The translations under genes and the position numbers were made by a program. A DNA stretch of 45,041 nucleotides from a virus (taxonomy: Duplodnaviria; Heunggongvirae; Uroviricota; Caudoviricetes): IMG/VR virus record IMGVR_UViG_2802429245_000013, one strand, 5' to 3'. Of the stretch, positions 26,547-44,307 are shown piece after piece (within the stretch, counting starts at the first letter, position 1; the number at the start of each line of letters is the position of its first letter). Under the pieces are notes generated by a model, which saw only the letters and a program-made list of their open reading frames with translations, did no database searches and was not told the DNA's origin.

Positions 26547-26621
<75 letters not shown>

Positions 26622-26624
26622 ATA

Positions 26625-26700
<76 letters not shown>

Positions 26701-33528: not shown

Positions 33529-34275
33529 TTACTTTTCAATACCTGGCTGACCAACATTCGGGCGCCAGCTCTCCCAGTTAAAATTCACCCAGCGCCCGCC
33601 GTTCATGGTCATGCGATCCATAATCCGCTCGCCGAGCAATGTTTTCATGGCCTCATAGTTCAGGTTTGTCAGCATTCCCACGCTACGCATCGACGCTGTC
33701 CGTCGATCAATAATCTGGTGCAGTACCACCTGCTCGTTTTTCGTCTCGCGCTGAATGCCAATTTCATCAAGAACCAGCAGATCCACTTCGCACAGTTCCC
33801 GCAAAAATTTTTCGCCTGACTGCCCGTCGTCATAGCTGGCGTGCAGGGCGCTCATAACATCAGCCACGGTAACCACAATCACTGTCTGACCGTCTTTCAG
33901 CAGGCGATTCCCGATAGCTGCCGCTAAGTGATTCTTCCCGGTACCAGGTTTTCCGCTGAACGCAAAATTTGTACACCCGGTCATCAGTTCATCGGCGATG
34001 GATTTCGCCTGGCTTAACGCGTATCGCTGGTCGTCGTTCTGCACCTGGTAATTCGCAAACGAGCATTTACGGTGCAACGGCTGGATGCCTGAGCGATTCA
34101 GAATTTTTTCCACCCGCAACTGGCGATTCAGGCGGTTGATCTCCTCGCTACGTTTCTGGCCTTCAGCAAGTTGCCACTCGCGCCACTCCGCAACCGTTCT
34201 GAATGGGGCGGTTACATGTGGTGGGGCCAGTCTGCGGATACGCTCCAGAACGCCTCCTGTCGCAATATTTTTCAT
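33529..34275 (-). CDS. DnaC-like replication helicase loader (IstB-like AAA+ ATPase), 248 aa
   Basis: Walker [18 protein letters not shown] and Walker [10 protein letters not shown] in ORF translation; follows O-like gene. Confidence 0.75.
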
Positions 34276-34281
34276 GGTCTG

Positions 34282-35070
34282 TTACCCCCTGAAGCCTGGC
34301 GGGATCGCACTGTCCGGCAACGAGACGGTGTTAACCTGTCGGAGCAACGTCTCAGGCCGAACGCCTTTCGGCGCGAACAAGCCCTGGTATTCATTGGCGA
34401 TGCTGTGTCTAATCACCTGCTCAGGGGTAAAACCCTGCTGGCGGAATTTTTCCAGCTCCCGTATCGCCCCGTTAGCGCCCTGCTCCGTTCGAATCGGTTT
34501 TCGTAATGCCTGTCTGAACCGGACCCACTCATGCCAGAGTGTTTCCGGCAACCAATCGGGCAACTCAATAGCCTCCGGCTCGAATTTTTTAGATGCTCGT
34601 TTTTGGCGAGGGGGATTTAGGGGGAGATCAGTATTTATATCTTCCTCTTCCTCTTCCTCTGGTAACGCTTTTTGATCCGTTTGTGTAACGCTGCCAGCGT
34701 TACCTTTTCGTTTCAGCTCGCGTAATTTTGTAACCCTCTCGTTTGTAATCGCCCGTTTTTTAGAGCTTTTTCCGTTATGGCGTTCAAAGTTAGGTAGAGA
34801 AAGCCCAACGTCATTTTCGACCAGCCATCCAACCTGAATTAACGCATCAGCAAAACCAGCCATAAAAGTGATGCGATCTATTGCACTTTTTGTAACGCCG
34901 CGAGCGTTACAATCTGCATTACCGTCTATCATTTGTTGATCCGCCCATGCCCAGAAGCGAATAACCTTCCCTAATGCGGCATCTGGATCAATATTCAGAA
35001 TCTCAGCAAGCCTGAATATTTCCGGCTTATCCGGCGTAATAACCTCGAGCTTTATCCAGTTTGAAGCCAT
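34282..35070 (-). CDS. Replication initiation protein (O-like / YdaU-like), 262 aa
   Basis: ORF track; position between CII-like and DnaC-like genes; acidic linker EEEEEED; contains two 19-bp palindromes. Confidence 0.5.
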   Translation of the reverse strand: MASNWIKLEVITPDKPEIFRLAEILNIDPDAALGKVIRFWAWADQQMIDGNADCNARGVTKSAIDRITFMAGFADALIQVGWLVENDVGLSLPNFERHNGKSSKKRAITNERVTKLRELKRKGNAGSVTQTDQKALPEEEEEEDINTDLPLNPPRQKRASKKFEPEAIELPDWLPETLWHEWVRFRQALRKPIRTEQGANGAIRELEKFRQQGFTPEQVIRHSIANEYQGLFAPKGVRPETLLRQVNTVSLPDSAIPPGFRG

Positions 35071-35102
35071 TTGTTTTCACCTTGTAACGCTCGCAGCGTT
35101 AC
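34685..35102. repeat. Three 19-bp palindromes GTAACGC-N5-GCGTTAC at 34685-34703, 34892-34910 and 35084-35102
   Basis: Read directly: gtaacgctgccagcgttac, gtaacgccgcgagcgttac, gtaacgctcgcagcgttac; two inside the O-like gene, one just upstream of its RBS. Confidence 0.6.
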
Positions 35103-35147: not shown

Positions 35148-35570
35148 TCAATGCACTACGACAGAATCACCGGGCGACCCACCACCGCTGAAATGTGCTT
35201 TCCGGTAAACGGCCTGGACTGCATCATCATGCGCATCAATTGCCGTACTCAACGCTTCCTGCGCCGCCAGTAATGCACGGCGTTCCAGGGTATCGAAGAT
35301 GCAGAGTCGGTGACGCAGCTCGCGCGGAAGAATTGCCAGAACCGCAGGGATCAGTGTCTGAATTTTTTCCCTTTGCGCTTTCGTTTCACCTTTTAACCAA
35401 CGGTGATAGATGTTCTGCTGATTATTCCAGTCCTTGCCTGGTACCAGGGGCAATTCGCCGCCCCCCTGGCGCAGATATTCTTCAGTAATTGCATTGGCTA
35501 CCCATGCCTGCCCTTTTTCAGCGGCCAGGGCTAACAGCACTGATTCGATGTGCTCATGCCTGATTTTCAT
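35148..35570 (-). CDS. CII-like / YdaT-like regulatory protein, 140 aa
   Basis: ORF track; second gene of the Cro-side operon. Confidence 0.45.
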   Translation of the reverse strand: MKIRHEHIESVLLALAAEKGQAWVANAITEEYLRQGGGELPLVPGKDWNNQQNIYHRWLKGETKAQREKIQTLIPAVLAILPRELRHRLCIFDTLERRALLAAQEALSTAIDAHDDAVQAVYRKAHFSGGGSPGDSVVVH

Positions 35571-35936: not shown

Positions 35937-36398
35937 ATGAAAAAAACACGCGAAGTGATTGCAACTCCAGAAGCGAGCAAGAATTTAAAAGCCGCATGGA
36001 ATGCAAGAAAAAAAGAGCTGAAGCTGACTCAAGAGCTGGCGGCTGAGTTGTTGGGATTCGAATCTCAAGGCACCGTTAGCCAGTATCTGAACGGCAAGAT
36101 ACCGGTAAATACCGACGCTGCGCTAAAATTTGCGGCTCTATTAAAGGTAAAACCAGAGGACATTCGAGAAGACCTTAAAGACTTAATGAATTATGTAAGA
36201 TCATCAGATACTTATGATGATAGCTTTTCAGGCAAAGGATGGAGGCTGGTCAATGAAGAACAGGCTGAGTTACTTAACCTCTTCGAGATTCTACCTGCGT
36301 CAGAAAAAGCCAAACTCCTTAACCAGCTACGTGGACTAAACAAGCTCTACGAGGAAGCCTTCGAGAACATGCTGGCACTAAAGAAACGTAACCAGTAG
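35937..36398 (+). CDS. CI/RacR-like prophage repressor (XRE-type HTH), 153 aa
   Basis: HTH LTQELAAELLGFESQGTVSQYLNGK; divergent from Cro-like gene; own terminator downstream. Confidence 0.6.
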   Translation: MKKTREVIATPEASKNLKAAWNARKKELKLTQELAAELLGFESQGTVSQYLNGKIPVNTDAALKFAALLKVKPEDIREDLKDLMNYVRSSDTYDDSFSGKGWRLVNEEQAELLNLFEILPASEKAKLLNQLRGLNKLYEEAFENMLALKKRNQ

Positions 36399-38209: not shown

Positions 38210-41200
38210 ATGAGCACAAAACCACTCTTCCTGTTACGGAAAGCGAAAAAATCATCCGGTGAACCTGACGTCGTCCTGTGGGCAAGCGACGATTTTGAAT
38301 CGACCTGTGCCACTCTGGACTACCTGCTCGTTAAGTCAGGTAAAAAACTGAGCAACTATTTTAAAGCTGTTGCCACAAATTTTCCTGTCGTTAATGACCT
38401 TCCCCCTGAAGGTGAGATCGATTTTACCTGGAGTGAACGCTATCAACTCAACAAAGACTCCATGACCTGGGAACTAAAACCGGGAGCAGCGCCAGACGAC
38501 GTTCACCATCAGGAGGATGCACCGGAAACCGAAGAACCGACGGGAGGCCAGGAAGAAAACGCGCAGGCAGACGCCCACGAGGATTGCCAGGATTGCGAAG
38601 TCTCTGTAGCCACTTTGCGGTTCACACAGCGTCTTCTGCACATTTTTACGTATGCAGCCGGGGATCGAAAATACCTGCATCATGCCACCCGTGAACAACG
38701 CAAACACATTACTGCTCTTGAGATGGATCAGGAAAACAGCTATGTCCAGAATCTGCTGTTGGCCATACGCAGCATGGCAGAACCGACAACTCTGGATAAT
38801 GCCGCCCTGCTCCGCCTGACTGATGCAATTAAGGCAGTGTTCTCTATCACGAAAAAACATCAGCCCTATGAATTTAAGAATTTCATTTCAGCCTGGCTGG
38901 ATACCGAACACATTGATCGCGGTCTTCTGACAAAAGAATGGCGAAAAGGGAATCGTGTTTCACGCATCACTCGCACGGCTTCCGGTGCTAATGCTGGCGG
39001 CGGGAACCTCACCGATCGCGGCGAAGGTTTCGTCCACGATCTGACGTCACTGGCGCGCGATGTAGCCACTGGCGTACTGGCCCGTTCAATGGACGTGGAC
39101 ATCTATAACCTTCATCCGGCACACGCTAAACGCATTGAGGAAATTATCGCTGAAAATAAACCGCCCTTTTCTGTTTTCCGCGACAAATTCATCACCATGC
39201 CTGGCGGGCTGGATTATTCCCGCGCCATCGTGGTTGCGTCCGTGAAAGAAGCACCAATTGGGATCGAGGTCATCCCCGCACACGTCACTGAATATCTGAA
39301 CAAAGTACTGACTGAAACCGATCATGCCAACCCTGATCCGGAAATCGTGGATATTGCCTGCGGTCGCTCCTCGGCCCCGATGCCGCAGCGAGTAACAGAA
39401 GAAGGAAAACAGGACGATGAAGAAAAACCACAACCATCTGGCGCAATGGCAGATGAACAGGCAACGGCTGAAACAGTGGAACCGAATGCAACTGAACATC
39501 ATCAGAACACGCAGCCGCTGGATGCTCAGTCACAGGTAAATTCTGTTGATGCGAAATATCAGGAACTGCGGGCAGAACTCCATGAAGCCCGGAAAAACAT
39601 TCCATCAAAAAATCCTGTCGATGCCGATAAATTGCTTGCTGCATCACGTGGTGAATTTGTTGACGGAATTAGCGACCCGAACGATCCGAAATGGGTTAAG
39701 GGGATCCAGACTCGCGATTCTGTGTACCAGAACCAGCCAGAAACGGAAAAAATCAGCCCGGATGCGAAACAACCTGAGCCAGTAGTGCAACAGGAACCGG
39801 AAATAGTCTGCAATGCCTGCGGTCAGACTGGCGGGGATAACTGCCCTGACTGTGGTGCGGTGATGGGCGACGCAACGTATCAGAAAACCTTTAATGAAGA
39901 AAATCAGAATGAATATCAGGAAAAAGGTCTGGAGGAAATGGAAGGCGCTGAACATCCGCACAATGAGAATGCTGGCAGCGATCCGCATCGCGATTGCAGT
40001 GATGAAACTGGCGAAGCGTCAGCTCCTGTAGCAACTGAAATCATGTGGCCGTCATATTTCGAGCCAGGCCGCTATGAAAACCTCCCGAACGAGGTTTATC
40101 ACTCCGCCAACGGAATAAGCAGCACGATGCTGAAGGATGCCCGTATCAGCCTGATGTATTACCACGGGAGGCACATTGCCGGAACTATTCCGAACGAGGA
40201 AAGTGATGCACTGCTGCGTGGGCGGATCATTCACAGCTATGTTCTGGAAACGGATAAATTCGCTGATGAATATGCCATTCCGGTACCGGTTCCTGAATAT
40301 GTGGTTACTACTTCTAACGAACTGATCGCCATCATTAAAAAACACAATGCCAGTCTGCCAGCACTGATGACACCAGAGCAGATGAAAGAGTGGATCGAAA
40401 GCTACAACAGCACTCTTATACAGCCACTGTCTGTAAGTGCTGGGGCCGAAGAAACAGGCATCCTTTACGGTTCACTTCCGGTGGAATTTCGGCGTATTCC
40501 TGAGGGGGAAAAACACACAGCATCAGCAATGAAAGCCTGTATTAAAGAATACAACGCAAGCCTCCCTCCTCTGTTGAAAACCAGTGGAGCACGGGAGCAG
40601 CTTCTGGATCAAATTGAAACTGTAGACCCAGAACTGGCAAAAAAAGAACGTGCTAAATCGTTGCCTTACAACATCAGTGGCACAAAAGAGCAATTAACCG
40701 AAATCGCACGGAAAATTCGCCCGGAACTGGTGACACTGGAGGACTGGCAAAAACGCCAGCAAGAAGAAAACGCCGGGAAAACGTTTATCAGTCCGGATAT
40801 GTATGAACAGGCAAAAAATATTCACGCGGCACTGCAAAACAATACCGATGCAGCAAGGCTACTCAACCACCCGGATCGCAAATCTGAAATCAGCTATTTC
40901 GGGTTTGATGAAGAAACCGGGCTGGAAATCAGGGTCCGCCCTGATATCGAAATCCGGCTGCCATACGAAAGCATTTGCGCTGACGTGAAGTCAGTCAGCC
41001 TCGGTTATGTGCGGCAGGAACGACTTAAAGATCGCCTGCACCTTGAAATTATTGAGCGTGATTATCACCTCAGCGCCGCAATGTATTGCGATGTGGCAAA
41101 CCTGGACAAATTTTTCTGGATCTTCGTCAACAAAGATGTTGGCTATCACTGGGTGGCAGTCGTGGAAGCCTCGCAGGAACTCCTGGAGCTTGGTCGACAG

Positions 41201-41335
41201 GAATATCGCCGGACGCTACGCCAGATAAACGAAGCCCTAGAGACAAACAACTGGCCAGCACCTATTACCGAAAGTTACACCGACGAATTAAACGACTTTG
41301 ATCTTCGTCGTCTTGAAGCACTGCATCTGGCTTAA
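38210..41335 (+). CDS. recE: RecE-like exonuclease VIII, 1041 aa, with C-terminal PD-(D/E)XK (YqaJ/lambda-exo-type) nuclease domain
   Basis: N-terminus [26 protein letters not shown]... and central ...[30 protein letters not shown]... recognised as RecE; C-terminal ...RPDIEIRL...ADVKS... nuclease-like. Confidence 0.75.
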
Positions 41336-42438
41336 TGGAGAACCTGACCATGCAAAATACCAATATCATCACGACAGAGCAGACACCAAATACCATTTCT
41401 GCCAGTAACACTATTTTTAACGTTCAGGCGTTGACGCAACTTCAGGAAGTAGCCGGGTTGATGTCACAGGCCACCGTCACAGTTCCCGATCACCTTCGCG
41501 GAAAACCTGCCGACTGCATGGCAATTATCATGCAAGCCATGCAATGGGGCATGAACCCCTACGCTGTGGCTCAGAAAACACACCTGGTAAACGGAGTTCT
41601 GGGTTATGAAGCACAACTGGTTAACGCTGTGATCTCTAGCTCAAGTGCAATTGTAGGCCGCTTCCATTACAAGTACGAGGGAGACTGGGAGAAATGCTCT
41701 CGCACCCGAGTGGAGACCGTTAAGAAAACGGCCAAAGGAGGCGGAATCTATGAGAAAAAAGAAACGATCCCATGTTGGACCAGTGAAGATGAGTATGGTC
41801 TATCAGTTCGAGTGGGTGCAGTTCTTCGCAGTGAAAGTGAGATTACCTGGGGAGAACCGGTGTTTCTTTCCAGCGTGATTACGCGTAATTCTCCTTTATG
41901 GACCTCAAACCCGAAACAACAGCTCGCCTATCTGGCGTTGAAATACTGGGCTCGCCTTTATTGTCCTGACGTCATCCTGGGCGTGTATACCCCCGACGAA
42001 CTGGAAGAGCCACAGGAAAAAATCATCAATCCTGTGCCGGTACAGAATTATAGCGAGGTAAGCGAGCAGCGAACAGAAACCATCGAACAGCGTATTGACG
42101 AAGCGTGGATTGATGAATTCCGGCAGCGCGTCGAAAGCGCGGCCACGACTGAGGAAACCACTGCATTACGCCAAGAGATAGAGGATCAGAAAAACCAGAT
42201 CGGCGAATTCTTTGCCGAGCTTAAAGGAAAAGTGGTTCGGCGCCATCACCGTCTCAATGCTATTGCCAGTATCGAGAAGATGATAAATGACCTGCCTTCA
42301 TCAGGTGATCCAGAAGCAGAACAAAAATTTACTGCTCTGGAAAATACGCTGAATGCTGCACGACCACATCTGGGTGAATTATATGAGGCGTATAAAACGA
42401 CACTGACAGATATAAAACCAGAATATATCAGCTCCTAA
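41335..42438 (+). CDS. RecT/Redbeta-type single-strand annealing protein, 367 aa
   Basis: Immediately downstream of recE with overlapping stop/start (TAATG); recombinase partner position; N-terminus does not match the K-12 RecT sequence as I remember it. Confidence 0.55.
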   Translation: MENLTMQNTNIITTEQTPNTISASNTIFNVQALTQLQEVAGLMSQATVTVPDHLRGKPADCMAIIMQAMQWGMNPYAVAQKTHLVNGVLGYEAQLVNAVISSSSAIVGRFHYKYEGDWEKCSRTRVETVKKTAKGGGIYEKKETIPCWTSEDEYGLSVRVGAVLRSESEITWGEPVFLSSVITRNSPLWTSNPKQQLAYLALKYWARLYCPDVILGVYTPDELEEPQEKIINPVPVQNYSEVSEQRTETIEQRIDEAWIDEFRQRVESAATTEETTALRQEIEDQKNQIGEFFAELKGKVVRRHHRLNAIASIEKMINDLPSSGDPEAEQKFTALENTLNAARPHLGELYEAYKTTLTDIKPEYISS

Positions 42439-42983: not shown

Positions 42984-43265
42984 ATGAATCTTGTGACACT
43001 CAAAACGTGGGGAAAACTCAGATATCCGGATAACCCACCATCAATATCAACGCTGAGACGATGGGCAAGGAATGGAAACATTTATCCTGCACCTGAACTA
43101 CACGGGAGGAGTTACAGGGTGGTTCCGGAGGCTTTCTATATCAACCCAAATAAGGTTGATACCGATATAACACACCATCAACCTAATGGGCGACAAGGGA
43201 GAGACAGTCCGTTACTGGAGAAGTTAAAACATGCAGCGGAAAAAATACGATCCCAATTTGCCTAA
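42984..43265 (+). CDS. xis: Excisionase (Xis), about 93 aa
   Basis: ORF 42909..43265 trimmed to Met with RBS AAGAGG; ...TLKTWGKLRYPDNPPSISTLRRWARNGNIYPAPEL... resembles lambda Xis; overlaps int start by 35 nt. Confidence 0.6.
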   Translation: MNLVTLKTWGKLRYPDNPPSISTLRRWARNGNIYPAPELHGRSYRVVPEAFYINPNKVDTDITHHQPNGRQGRDSPLLEKLKHAAEKIRSQFA

Positions 43266-44307
43266 AAACTTAACATATCGAAGGAGGGACAAAGCATATT
43301 ACTGGCGCAACCCTCTGACGAAAGAAGAATTTACACTAGGTAAAATTTCAAGGAGAGATGCAGTAGCGCAGGCAATTGAAGCAAATCATTATATATACAA
43401 AAACTACTCTCCTGCAGCCTTAATTGAAAAGCTTAAAGGGTTCGACTCATTTACTATGGCAGACTGGATTGAACGTTACAAAACGATTCTTATAAGGAGA
43501 AAAGTGTCCAGAAATACTTATAAAATTCGGATAAATCAACTGGAGACAATAAAAGAAAAATTGGGAGGAATTTTACTGACAGAAATAACCACTCGCCATA
43601 TTGCCGAGTTTCTTGATTTGTGGATTGAAGGAGGGAAAAACACAATGGCAGGATCAATGCGTTCTGTGTTGTCTGATATGTTTCGCGAGGCCATTGTTGA
43701 AGGACGTATATCTCAAAATCCAGTAACGCCAACAAGAGCACCGAAAATAGTAGTTACAAGAGAACGACTGAAACTAAAGACATACAACTGCATCAGGGAG
43801 GCAGCAGATCAACTTCCGGCATGGTTCCCATTAGCTATGGATTTAGCCCTTGTAACAGGACAACGTCGCGAAGACATAACGAATATGCGGTTCAGTGATA
43901 TTTATGATGATCGTCTCCACATCAGGCAAATTAAGACAGGAATGATGATTGCTATCCCCCTGTCACTCAGCCTTCCTGTCGCTGGTCTACGGCTTGGTAC
44001 AGTAGTTGAACGGTGCCGCCTGGTAAGCCGGGGAGATTATCTAATCAGTGCCGGGATTAGAAAAAACAGCCCTGACGGCAGCATTCACCCGGATGGCCTG
44101 ACAAAAAAATTTGTCGCAGCCAGAAAATTAACAGGTATCCAGTTCAGTGAAAACCCACCAACTTTTCACGAGATCAGAAGTCTGGCTGGACGATTGTACA
44201 AAGAAACATGTGGAGAAGAATTTGCCCAGCGCCTACTTGGTCACACATCGGAGAAGACAACAAAAATGTATCTTGATGAGCGAGAAAAAACGTACTTACT
44301 GCTCTGA
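43231..44307 (+). CDS. int: Integrase, lambda-family tyrosine recombinase, 358 aa
   Basis: N-terminus aligns with lambda Int by eye ([38 protein letters not shown] versus MGRRRSHERRDLPPNLYIRNNGYYCYRDPRTGKEFGLG); C-terminal [11 protein letters not shown]...[13 protein letters not shown] catalytic region. Confidence 0.85.

Follow-up and report, generated by a model that had tools for sequence, protein, structure and literature searches.

Palindromic half-site arrays in and before the replication initiator gene of a Rac-like Escherichia coli prophage: candidate initiator-binding sites of a proposed intragenic origin

The virus record IMGVR_UViG_2802429245_000013 (Duplodnaviria; Heunggongvirae; Uroviricota; Caudoviricetes) comprises 45,041 nt, and this whole stretch is termed the window in the following. 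Judged by its sequence, the region is a Rac-like prophage of Escherichia coli. Its minus strand carries, from 35070 to 34282, the gene for a replication initiator, and the subject of this report is a set of three inverted repeats, GTAACGC-N5-GCGTTAC, located directly before and within this gene (sites 1, 2, and 3, numbered in the direction of the gene), together with the single half-sites and the polypurine and AT-rich sequences that accompany them. These elements are the following:

34282-35070, minus strand: initiator gene, 262 amino acids, with an N-domain (residues 1-121), a linker (about 122-165), and a C-domain (about 166-262)
35084-35102: site 1, palindrome GTAACGCTCGCAGCGTTAC, upstream of the initiator gene with 13 nt between its end and the ATG
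34916-34922, minus strand: degenerate left half-site GTAATGC, 12 bp (one period) before site 2
34892-34910: site 2, the distal palindrome within the N-domain coding sequence, codons 54-60 (CNARGVT)
34732-34734, minus strand: codon of Val113, which belongs to the basic helix and co-varies with base 3 of the half-site
34685-34703: site 3, palindrome GTAACGCTGCCAGCGTTAC, a perfect 8-3-8 arrangement, codons 123-129 (GNAGSVT), where the N-domain gives way to the linker
34662-34668, minus strand: terminal right half-site GCGTTAC (gene strand), encoding Ala-Leu-Pro with the Leu codon TTA
34640-34660, minus strand: polypurine tract AGAGGAAGAGGAAGAGGAAGA (gene strand), 21 nt, encoding the EEEEEE linker
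34626-34641, minus strand: AT-rich stretch GATATAAATACTGATC, with GATC at 34626-34629, followed by CCCCCTAAATCCCCC

The palindrome GTAACGC-N5-GCGTTAC is present in three exact copies in the window; no further copy was found when up to three mismatches were allowed, and none of 100 dinucleotide-preserving shuffles of the window contained an exact one. A preliminary description of this DNA had reported three such palindromes at a spacing of about 200 bp, one upstream of the initiator gene and two within its coding sequence, and both statements hold: the distances are 207 bp between sites 3 and 2 and 192 bp between sites 2 and 1, and site 1 precedes the ATG of the minus-strand gene. Its list of elements was right for the palindromes but overlooked the half-sites at 34662-34668 and 34916-34922, the polypurine/AT block, and the fuller consensus of the palindrome, which is GTAACGCT-N3-AGCGTTAC. 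Of the heptamer GTAACGC the window holds 13 copies (3.9 expected), seven of them inside the 440-bp palindrome stretch. Site 1 is non-coding and directly adjoins the Shine-Dalgarno sequence AAGGTGA of the initiator gene, and sites 2 and 3 are read in one frame and encode similar peptides. The degenerate half-site before site 2 arose through a clade-specific insertion of 12 bp (four codons, GNAD), visible as four extra residues in the protein alignment. The terminal half-site lies 23 bp, or two helical turns, past the right arm of site 3 and is fused to the polypurine tract; together with site 3 it occupies codons 123-136, between the folded N-domain (up to residue 121) and the disordered linker, and this location is the same family-wide. 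Two GATC (Dam) sites, at 34626-34629 and 34674-34677, flank the block of half-site and polypurine tract.

The initiator matches the PHROGs replication initiation protein family phrog_2509 (1.6e-88); a scan of the initiator and of the N-domains of 51 relatives gave no Pfam or NCBIfam model for the N-domain. In an AlphaFold2 model of moderate confidence (predicted local distance difference test score, pLDDT, of 73.8), two helices and a loop are followed by a helix-turn-helix with a beta-hairpin wing, a long basic helix (residues 102-121), a disordered acidic linker, and a helical C-domain. Predicted viral structures tie the initiator to DUF1376, to 'replisome organizers', and to Lin1244/Lin1753 N-domains (E about 5e-4 to 6e-3), and a Foldseek search of the PDB returned only weak winged-helix matches, every one with E >0.6. 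The C-domain (residues 170-262) resembles the single-stranded DNA-binding domain of DnaT (PDB entries 2ru8, E 9.4e-5, and 9zbt, 3e-4), and a Pfam DnaT match was obtained for 3 of the 51 relatives. Of seven distant loci examined, four encode a complete DnaB-type helicase directly downstream of the gene, one a protein with the DnaB N-terminal domain only, and one an IstB/DnaC-like loader. The family comprises 6,727 cluster representatives at 50% identity in public data (E <=1e-3) and is nearly missing from plasmids (2 of 72,556 records). The closest relatives are nearly all labelled hypothetical, as is the protein itself in about 680 of 5,426 complete E. coli genomes. Named phages with a member include TL-2011b, Xanthomonas CP2, the Xylella/Xanthomonas Usme group, Ralstonia phages, Pseudomonas PAN70 and phiPSA1, and epsilon15, the annotations there including 'primosomal protein I', 'replication initiation protein', or hypothetical. 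In epsilon15-like (L375, 34020-35189), Vibrio (H57/H58), and Salmonella (H84, H86) phages, a gene for a C-5 cytosine methyltransferase is located directly upstream of the initiator gene and overlaps it.

The sites are a property of this family. In a scan of viral contigs for the exact palindrome, 101-103 of 120 loci had it inside a homologue of the initiator N-domain, usually near nt +150 and +350 of the gene, although these homologues are often just 35-50% identical in protein sequence. The control palindrome GTGACGC-N5-GCGTCAC was found with an initiator N-domain at 2 of 120 loci, almost all of its occurrences being unrelated single matches. In bulk metagenome DNA, 73 of 143 exact palindromes were located in or near a gene of the initiator family; the remainder were isolated, as is predicted by chance for so large a collection. 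A further 80 loci were retrieved from species-representative genomes by two peptide patterns that do not overlap the sites, a selection which avoids ascertainment through the DNA motif; these loci are labelled as belonging to Burkholderiales, Pseudomonas, other Gammaproteobacteria, Planctomycetota, and Verrucomicrobiota including Akkermansia. With up to two mismatches, an equivalent of site 2 (+136 to +172) was present in 71, an equivalent of site 3 (+334 to +393) in 70, and both in 66 of the 80 protein-selected loci, and their flanks (398,624 bp) contained no exact palindrome and four with up to two mismatches. An equivalent of site 1, at -32 to -44, was found solely in enterobacterial relatives of at least 63% identity, and elsewhere among the 80 loci once, at -105. 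On this distribution, site 1 is an addition of the enterobacterial clade and site 2 is family-wide.

The organization of the proximal sites is shared as well. Past +320, the protein-selected loci contain up to three left half-sites GTAACG with a period of 12 bp, the palindrome, and up to two right half-sites CGTTA(C/G) at 11-12 bp; the last of these, GCGTTACC, is fused to a polypurine tract, (T/A)AGAGAAGAGAAGAGAAG, which encodes ALP(R/K)EEKRRE and is followed by AT-rich sequence. The family form of this tract, directly after the terminal half-site, is AGAGAAGAGAAG..., and in a profile anchored on the last half-site the GC content falls from about 0.56 to 0.32 and the purine content rises up to 0.79 within the next 20-40 nt. 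The core in the window is a reduced form of this cluster, with one palindrome and one half-site. The remark in the preliminary description that the wide spacing is unlike that of tandem lambda iterons was correct for the palindromes but incomplete, since the core of the family consists of half-sites with an 11-12 bp periodicity around site 3. Across the family, the distances between the sites range from 189 to 231 bp; a fixed helical phase was sought and not found.

A few loci depart from this arrangement. In L006 (520-590, palindrome at 528), a palindrome with two to three right half-sites is located at the 5' end of another gene, 8 kb from the initiator gene, and in L092 (1368-1386) a perfect GTAACGCTGCCAGCGTTAC lies within a small open reading frame, 4.5 kb from the initiator gene; these remote extra sites could be second origins or regulatory targets. 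In two close relatives, L059 and L093, site 3 has moved by one base (around nt +368) so that the frame meets a TAA within the palindrome, either because the gene is a frameshifted pseudogene or through an error of sequencing. Two palindromes in L395 (5300-5420), separated by 71 bp and with no initiator gene nearby, were rejected, as they represent the arms (about 45 bp) of an unrelated long inverted repeat.

Several observations indicate that the constraint on the intragenic sites acts on DNA and not on protein. Within the family, the palindrome is kept in two reading frames, NGT-AAC-GCN-NNN-NGC-GTT-ACN (xNAxxVT) and GTA-ACG-...-GCG-TTA-C (VTxxALx), and the third frame would give a TAA stop. 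In the xNAxxVT frame, the first and the fifth residue are only Gly, Ser, Cys, or Arg, exactly the residues that NGT and NGC codons can encode. When 76 of the protein-selected genes were aligned by codon, the third-position information was 1.5-1.8 bits at the arms, compared with about 0.1-0.5 bits elsewhere, and the central spacer bases vary freely. Single codons are nearly fixed, namely GGT for 69 of 71 Gly (24% in the background computed from the same genes) and GTT for 70 of 74 Val (29%), and this includes rare or non-preferred ones, with TTA for 64 of 65 Leu in the column of the terminal half-site (13%) and AGA for 31 of 33 Arg (13%). Among 15 close relatives, which were picked for having at least one exact site, 3 of 42 positions in the arms were variable, compared with 12 of 15 in the spacers and 421 of 812 in the remainder (Fisher p = 1e-9). 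In the predicted structure, the site-2 peptide falls in a surface loop of low pLDDT (residues 47-60) and the site-3 peptide is situated at the edge of the disordered linker, which fits with the protein merely tolerating these residues.

Which protein goes with the sites can be judged from the genes that surround them. The initiator gene of the window is accompanied by the following genes:

35937-36398, divergent: gene for a cI/RacR-like repressor
35835-35554, minus strand: cro/YdaS-like gene
35570-35148, minus strand: cII/YdaT-like gene
33529-34275, minus strand: gene for a DnaC-like helicase loader (NCBIfam PRK12377 1e-152, DnaC 1.1e-90; Pfam IstB_IS21)
33508-32765, minus strand: gene for a DUF1627 (winged-helix) protein

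In the stretches 38210-42438, 43231-44307, and 26547-26700, the prophage furthermore encodes a 1041-residue exonuclease VIII of the RecE type with a C-terminal PDDEXK domain, RecT, a lambda-type integrase, and tRNA-Gly(TCC) and tRNA-Thr(TGT), which confirms its assignment as Rac-like, and the segment is 94-98% identical in many E. coli chromosomes. A promoter scan detected no sigma-70-like promoter on the gene strand near site 1, and hence no overlap of the inverted repeat with a promoter, and the initiator gene seems to share a transcript with the cro-like and cII-like genes. The DnaC-like loader, whose gene lies directly downstream of the initiator gene, is the presumed partner of the initiator C-domain. 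Among the 80 protein-selected loci, a CII-like, a DUF1627, or a cI-like protein was found in none, a cro-like protein in one, a DnaC-like protein in seven, and the same C-domain in one. Within this comparison, the N-domain of the initiator is the sole protein element that always accompanies the sites.

Two comparisons point to the same linkage, the first of them a natural exchange. With YdaU of the E. coli K-12 Rac prophage, the window initiator has the C-domain and the loader in common but not the N-domain, and the ydaU gene contains not a single GTAACGC half-site. At the place of site 3, the linker-coding DNA of ydaU (plus strand of L201, about 2889-2968; gene nt 391-470) carries instead five direct repeats RRTGTTSAAM, the last four with a period of 11-13 bp, followed by AT-rich DNA, and the homology between the window and K-12 ydaU starts right after these repeats, at CCCCCTAAATCCCCC. 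The Rac prophage has been reported to have an active origin, oriJ (PMC3945230), and the RRTGTTSAAM repeats may be its iterons. The second case is the subfamily of epsilon15, phiPSA1, RPZH6, and BUCT711, at about 33% identity. Here the layout is the same, one cluster lying distally in the DNA for the N-domain and the proximal one being fused to CAGAGAAGAGAAG, and the half-site is GTCCGC(AT)/(AT)GCGGAC. The epsilon15 gene (L375) contains two clusters of four GTCCGC/GCGGAC half-sites each, at 35233-35284 and 35512-35552, the second of which is fused to CAGAGAAGAGAAGAGAAG; 8 of the 18 copies of this type in the genome are located in the initiator gene. In the RefSeq record of epsilon15 no origin is annotated, though many protein-binding sites are listed.

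Changes of the recognition sequence are, in addition, correlated with changes in the initiator. In L197, L184, and L213, GTAACG is replaced at all positions by GTGACG. When 198 loci were compared, residue 113 of the basic helix was V (143), A (11), Q (8), or T (1) in GTAACG loci and M (7), N (5), S (5), or Q (1), but never V or A, in GTGACG loci; in the epsilon15 subfamily it is Lys. Among 99 representatives, no column reached the mutual information of column 113 (0.470 of 0.503 bits); next came the residues encoded by the half-sites themselves and then position 116 on the same helix face. A neighbour-joining tree built without these columns indicated about eight independent switches, and L334 (Q, with CGTCAC right arms) shares 81% identity with L088 (V, GTAACG). 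This might amount to a simple protein-DNA recognition code, with V/A for GTAACG, M/N/S for GTGACG, and K for GTCCGC; the relation between residue 113 and base 3 is a strong tendency, not a rule. The pairing of hydrophobic Val or Ala with A:T and of polar or long side chains with G:C would be chemically reasonable. A viral contig, L245, combines a GTAACG site 2 of the canonical kind with an enlarged linker array (gene nt +340 to +600), a duplicated block that holds at least eight GTGACG/CGTCAC half-sites, and has Asn at position 113.

Taken together, these results make it probable that the palindromes are sites for dimers of the prophage's own initiator and part of a replication origin that is located inside the initiator gene, and we consider binding of the initiator to be the only explanation that covers all the observations made on these sequences. 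The proposal of the preliminary description that the repeats are sites of a dimeric DNA-binding protein, and its suggestion of lambda-like origin elements embedded in the initiator gene, both gain good support from the conservation at the DNA level, the position in the linker beside the polypurine/AT block, the joint exchange of N-domain and repeats in K-12 Rac, and the co-variation.

The following mechanism is proposed. Initiator dimers would bind the palindromes via the winged-helix-like N-domain and the basic helix (residues 102-121), with residue 113, as suggested by its co-variation, reading base 3 of each half-site. Site 3 is the putative origin core, and initiator bound to it and to the half-site in phase with it may destabilize or mark the adjacent polypurine/AT DNA of low stability. 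This block, including the polypurine tract, would serve as the DNA-unwinding or helicase-entry region, and recruitment of the host DnaB to it would fall to the DnaT-like C-domain together with the DnaC-like loader, as might be expected from the analogy with lambda O/P and from the gene context. Sites 2 and 1, about 200 and 400 bp upstream of the core, most likely cooperate with it by looping or wrapping into one nucleoprotein complex. As the distal site is retained even by members in which it has another half-site sequence and another location in the gene, a second anchor at about 190-280 bp from the core seems to be needed, and since the spacing (189-231 bp) shows no lock to the helical repeat, some flexibility of the geometry has to be assumed. 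Site 1, at the ribosome-binding site, may in addition allow the initiator to limit its own expression, possibly as a roadblock or through an effect on translation.

Some points weigh against this interpretation. The variable spacing without helical lock leaves the looping model loose, the core in the window has fewer repeats than classical iteron origins (one palindrome and one half-site), and the AT-rich stretch measures only 16 nt and is surpassed in AT content elsewhere in the gene. Glutamine at position 113 is found with both types of sites, and L245 mixes GTAACG and GTGACG sites. Locus sets selected by pattern carry an ascertainment bias toward having a site, and host labels of metagenome bins may be wrong, as for L149, a 1.5-kb 'Streptomyces' contig which looks Pseudomonas-like. 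Furthermore, no experiment on binding or origin activity was found in the searchable literature for any member of the family.

Of the other explanations, the one that accounts best for the data also has the initiator as binding protein, but regards the sites as autoregulatory operators which block transcription or translation of its own gene, with the true origin located elsewhere. Self-repression through inverted repeats is known for many initiators of plasmids and phages, site 1 adjoins the Shine-Dalgarno sequence, and the extra sites remote from the initiator gene in L006 and L092 suggest roles beyond a single origin. Site 1, however, is lacking in almost the whole family, while the intragenic sites are conserved, and there is no sigma-70-like promoter near it on the gene strand. 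The fusion of the last half-site to a polypurine linker block of low GC content fits an origin better, as does the presence of other repeats in the corresponding position of K-12 ydaU and of the epsilon15 subfamily. We therefore regard this explanation of the whole set as unlikely; for site 1 a purely autoregulatory role is possible, and for site 2 it is conceivable.

Alternatively, the palindromes could act as hairpins in RNA or single-stranded DNA, i.e. in mRNA stability, translational control, antisense termination, or as a signal for primosome assembly or priming. Each of them folds into a hairpin of 8-10 bp with -10 to -12 kcal/mol and a z score of about -4, the C-domain resembles the single-stranded DNA-binding domain of DnaT, and in the GTGACG lineages both arms have changed together so that pairing is preserved. 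On the plus strand, antisense to the initiator gene, site 3 and the following CTTTTCGTTT (34685-34713) were flagged as a weak terminator-like hairpin, and CTTTT comes after the palindrome on the antisense strand of many relatives as well; we regard this terminator-like call as a side effect of the palindrome. A hairpin function would require arms that are complementary, whereas the arm sequence itself is nearly invariant; the unpaired direct-repeat half-sites and the terminal half-site are conserved too and switch sequence together with the palindromes, and the arms of L334 (GTAACG...CGTCAC) no longer pair. There was also no Rfam match to the sites, the one match elsewhere in the region being at chance level (E 0.071). 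A role as hairpins thus has only a slim chance of being correct.

The recurrence of one sequence in phages of very different hosts could also be explained by a universal factor, that is, by a conserved nucleoid-associated or replication protein of the host which the phage recruits. This has a still slimmer chance. The labelled hosts span Proteobacteria, Planctomycetota, and Verrucomicrobiota, and we know of no host factor, including DnaA, IHF, and Fis, with the specificity of this palindrome. Across about eight independent lineages, the half-site variant goes with the identity of one residue in the phage protein, the GTCCGC (epsilon15) type and the GTAACG type both occur in enterobacteria and in Pseudomonas, and no exact palindrome was present in the approximately 400 kb of flanking host or prophage DNA.

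The preliminary description had offered, as an alternative to origin elements, operators for the adjacent CII-like or winged-helix protein, and the same can be asked of the cro/YdaS-like and cI-like regulators: the genes are neighbours in the window, and sites with dyad symmetry are typical of helix-turn-helix repressors. CII-type activators such as lambda CII, on the other hand, recognize direct repeats and not dyads. The CII-like and the DUF1627 protein are both missing from all 80 protein-selected loci, 66 of which keep both intragenic sites, so that this alternative finds no support; with the cI-like protein likewise missing, the cro-like one present once, and the half-site co-varying with a residue of the initiator itself, operators for any of these regulators are highly improbable. 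That a conserved peptide motif, GNAxSVT, or chance has produced the repeats is of negligible probability: sites 2 and 3 of the window do share a frame and similar peptides, but the same DNA is also kept in the VTxxALx frame and in the non-coding site 1, its flanking residues are limited to the NGT/NGC sets with rare or non-preferred codons fixed, the encoded peptides lie in a low-confidence loop and a disordered linker, and no shuffled sequence contained the exact palindrome.

An initiator-binding origin of the kind proposed here would still follow the lambda paradigm, with the origin contained in the gene of its initiator. In phage lambda, ori is located inside gene O, in the linker-coding DNA between the DNA-binding N-domain and the partner-binding C-domain; it consists of four tandem iterons about 20 bp apart, each of about 19 bp with an internal dyad, and of an adjacent AT-rich, strand-asymmetric segment. 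In lambdoid O/P or gene 18/12 modules, the N-domain and the repeats are exchanged together, with a loader or helicase gene downstream. Likewise, the repeats in the window are about 19 bp long, have a dyad, and lie in the inter-domain linker; a purine run of 21 nt and an AT-rich stretch of 16 nt, which may correspond to the lambda segment, come next and then a loader gene, and the comparison with K-12 Rac shows an exchange of the N-domain together with the repeats. The initiator differs in having no sequence relationship to lambda O and no Pfam Phage_rep_O match, and a run of at least three tandem repeats at a spacing of about 20 bp is not present, the single half-site being 23 bp and the palindromes 192 and 207 bp apart. 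The core is rather an extended inverted array, which in other members holds 3-6 half-sites at 11-12 bp; a second site or cluster is located about 200-280 bp upstream within the N-domain coding sequence, and in the enterobacterial clade a third one before the gene. In the initiator family, the last half-site runs directly into a polypurine GA tract, and the recognition sequence, rather than changing from one close relative to the next, is common to a very large share of the members. The system is set apart by the inverted half-site array, the fused polypurine tract, the apparently obligatory distal site in the N-domain coding sequence, and the breadth of one recognition sequence.

Other known systems share single features with this one. 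G38P of phage SPP1 is a winged-helix initiator which binds repeats (oriL) within its own gene 38, next to an AT-rich region, these repeats being direct AB boxes. The window initiator matches 'Replisome organizer' predicted structures in BFVD (E about 7e-4), in line with a shared fold class, but it differs in having no Pfam Phage_rep_org_N match, dyad-symmetric half-sites, a DnaT-like C-domain, and other hosts. In iteron plasmids (RepA of pPS10, RepE of F), Rep monomers bind direct iterons outside the gene, whereas the repeats in the window are dyad-symmetric and inside the gene, and the family is represented in just the two plasmid records mentioned above. The prophage shares with K-12 Rac the gene order (racR/cI-like, ydaS, ydaT, initiator, ydaV-like loader, DUF1627) and the DNA for the initiator C-domain, which is 93-96% identical; the N-domain of YdaU is a distantly related module of the DUF1376 type, its five repeats are direct, and of the queried segment (the gene plus 77 nt upstream) only the C-terminal 27-42% matches ydaU in E. 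coli genomes, and K-12 ydaU itself matches just the last third. With the epsilon15 type, the initiator shares the fold family of the N-domain and the presence of two clusters in the gene; there, the distal cluster is at codons of about 19-33 (here about 50-56), in addition to the different half-site and Lys at position 113. No description of the sites was found in the searchable literature on Rac/oriJ, the motif itself, iterons, ydaU, the epsilon15 origin, or DUF1376; as most subscription journals lie outside it, an older description may exist.

The consensus GTAACGCT-N3-AGCGTTAC is common to about 90% of the typeable family loci sampled, the labelled hosts of which span several phyla, and the two-part layout is kept in subfamilies with a changed recognition sequence, which suggests an obligatory looped or wrapped initiation complex. 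It is conceivable, although we put this forward only tentatively, that the family represents an undescribed and very widespread origin-initiator system with a two-part origin and one shared recognition sequence, whose specificity is tunable largely via one residue. The sites are a clear case of DNA-level selection written over a coding sequence in two reading frames, and the proposed pairing of a specific residue with a specific base is testable. If the assignment is correct, an origin and a function could be given to a protein that is 'hypothetical' in E. coli genomes and to its family, and a sequence signature would be available for locating the origin in Rac-like prophages, Xanthomonas CP2-like phages, Ralstonia phages, and Pseudomonas prophages. 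If one recognition sequence is indeed shared so broadly, unrelated phages and prophages residing in the same cell could fire each other's origins or compete for them.

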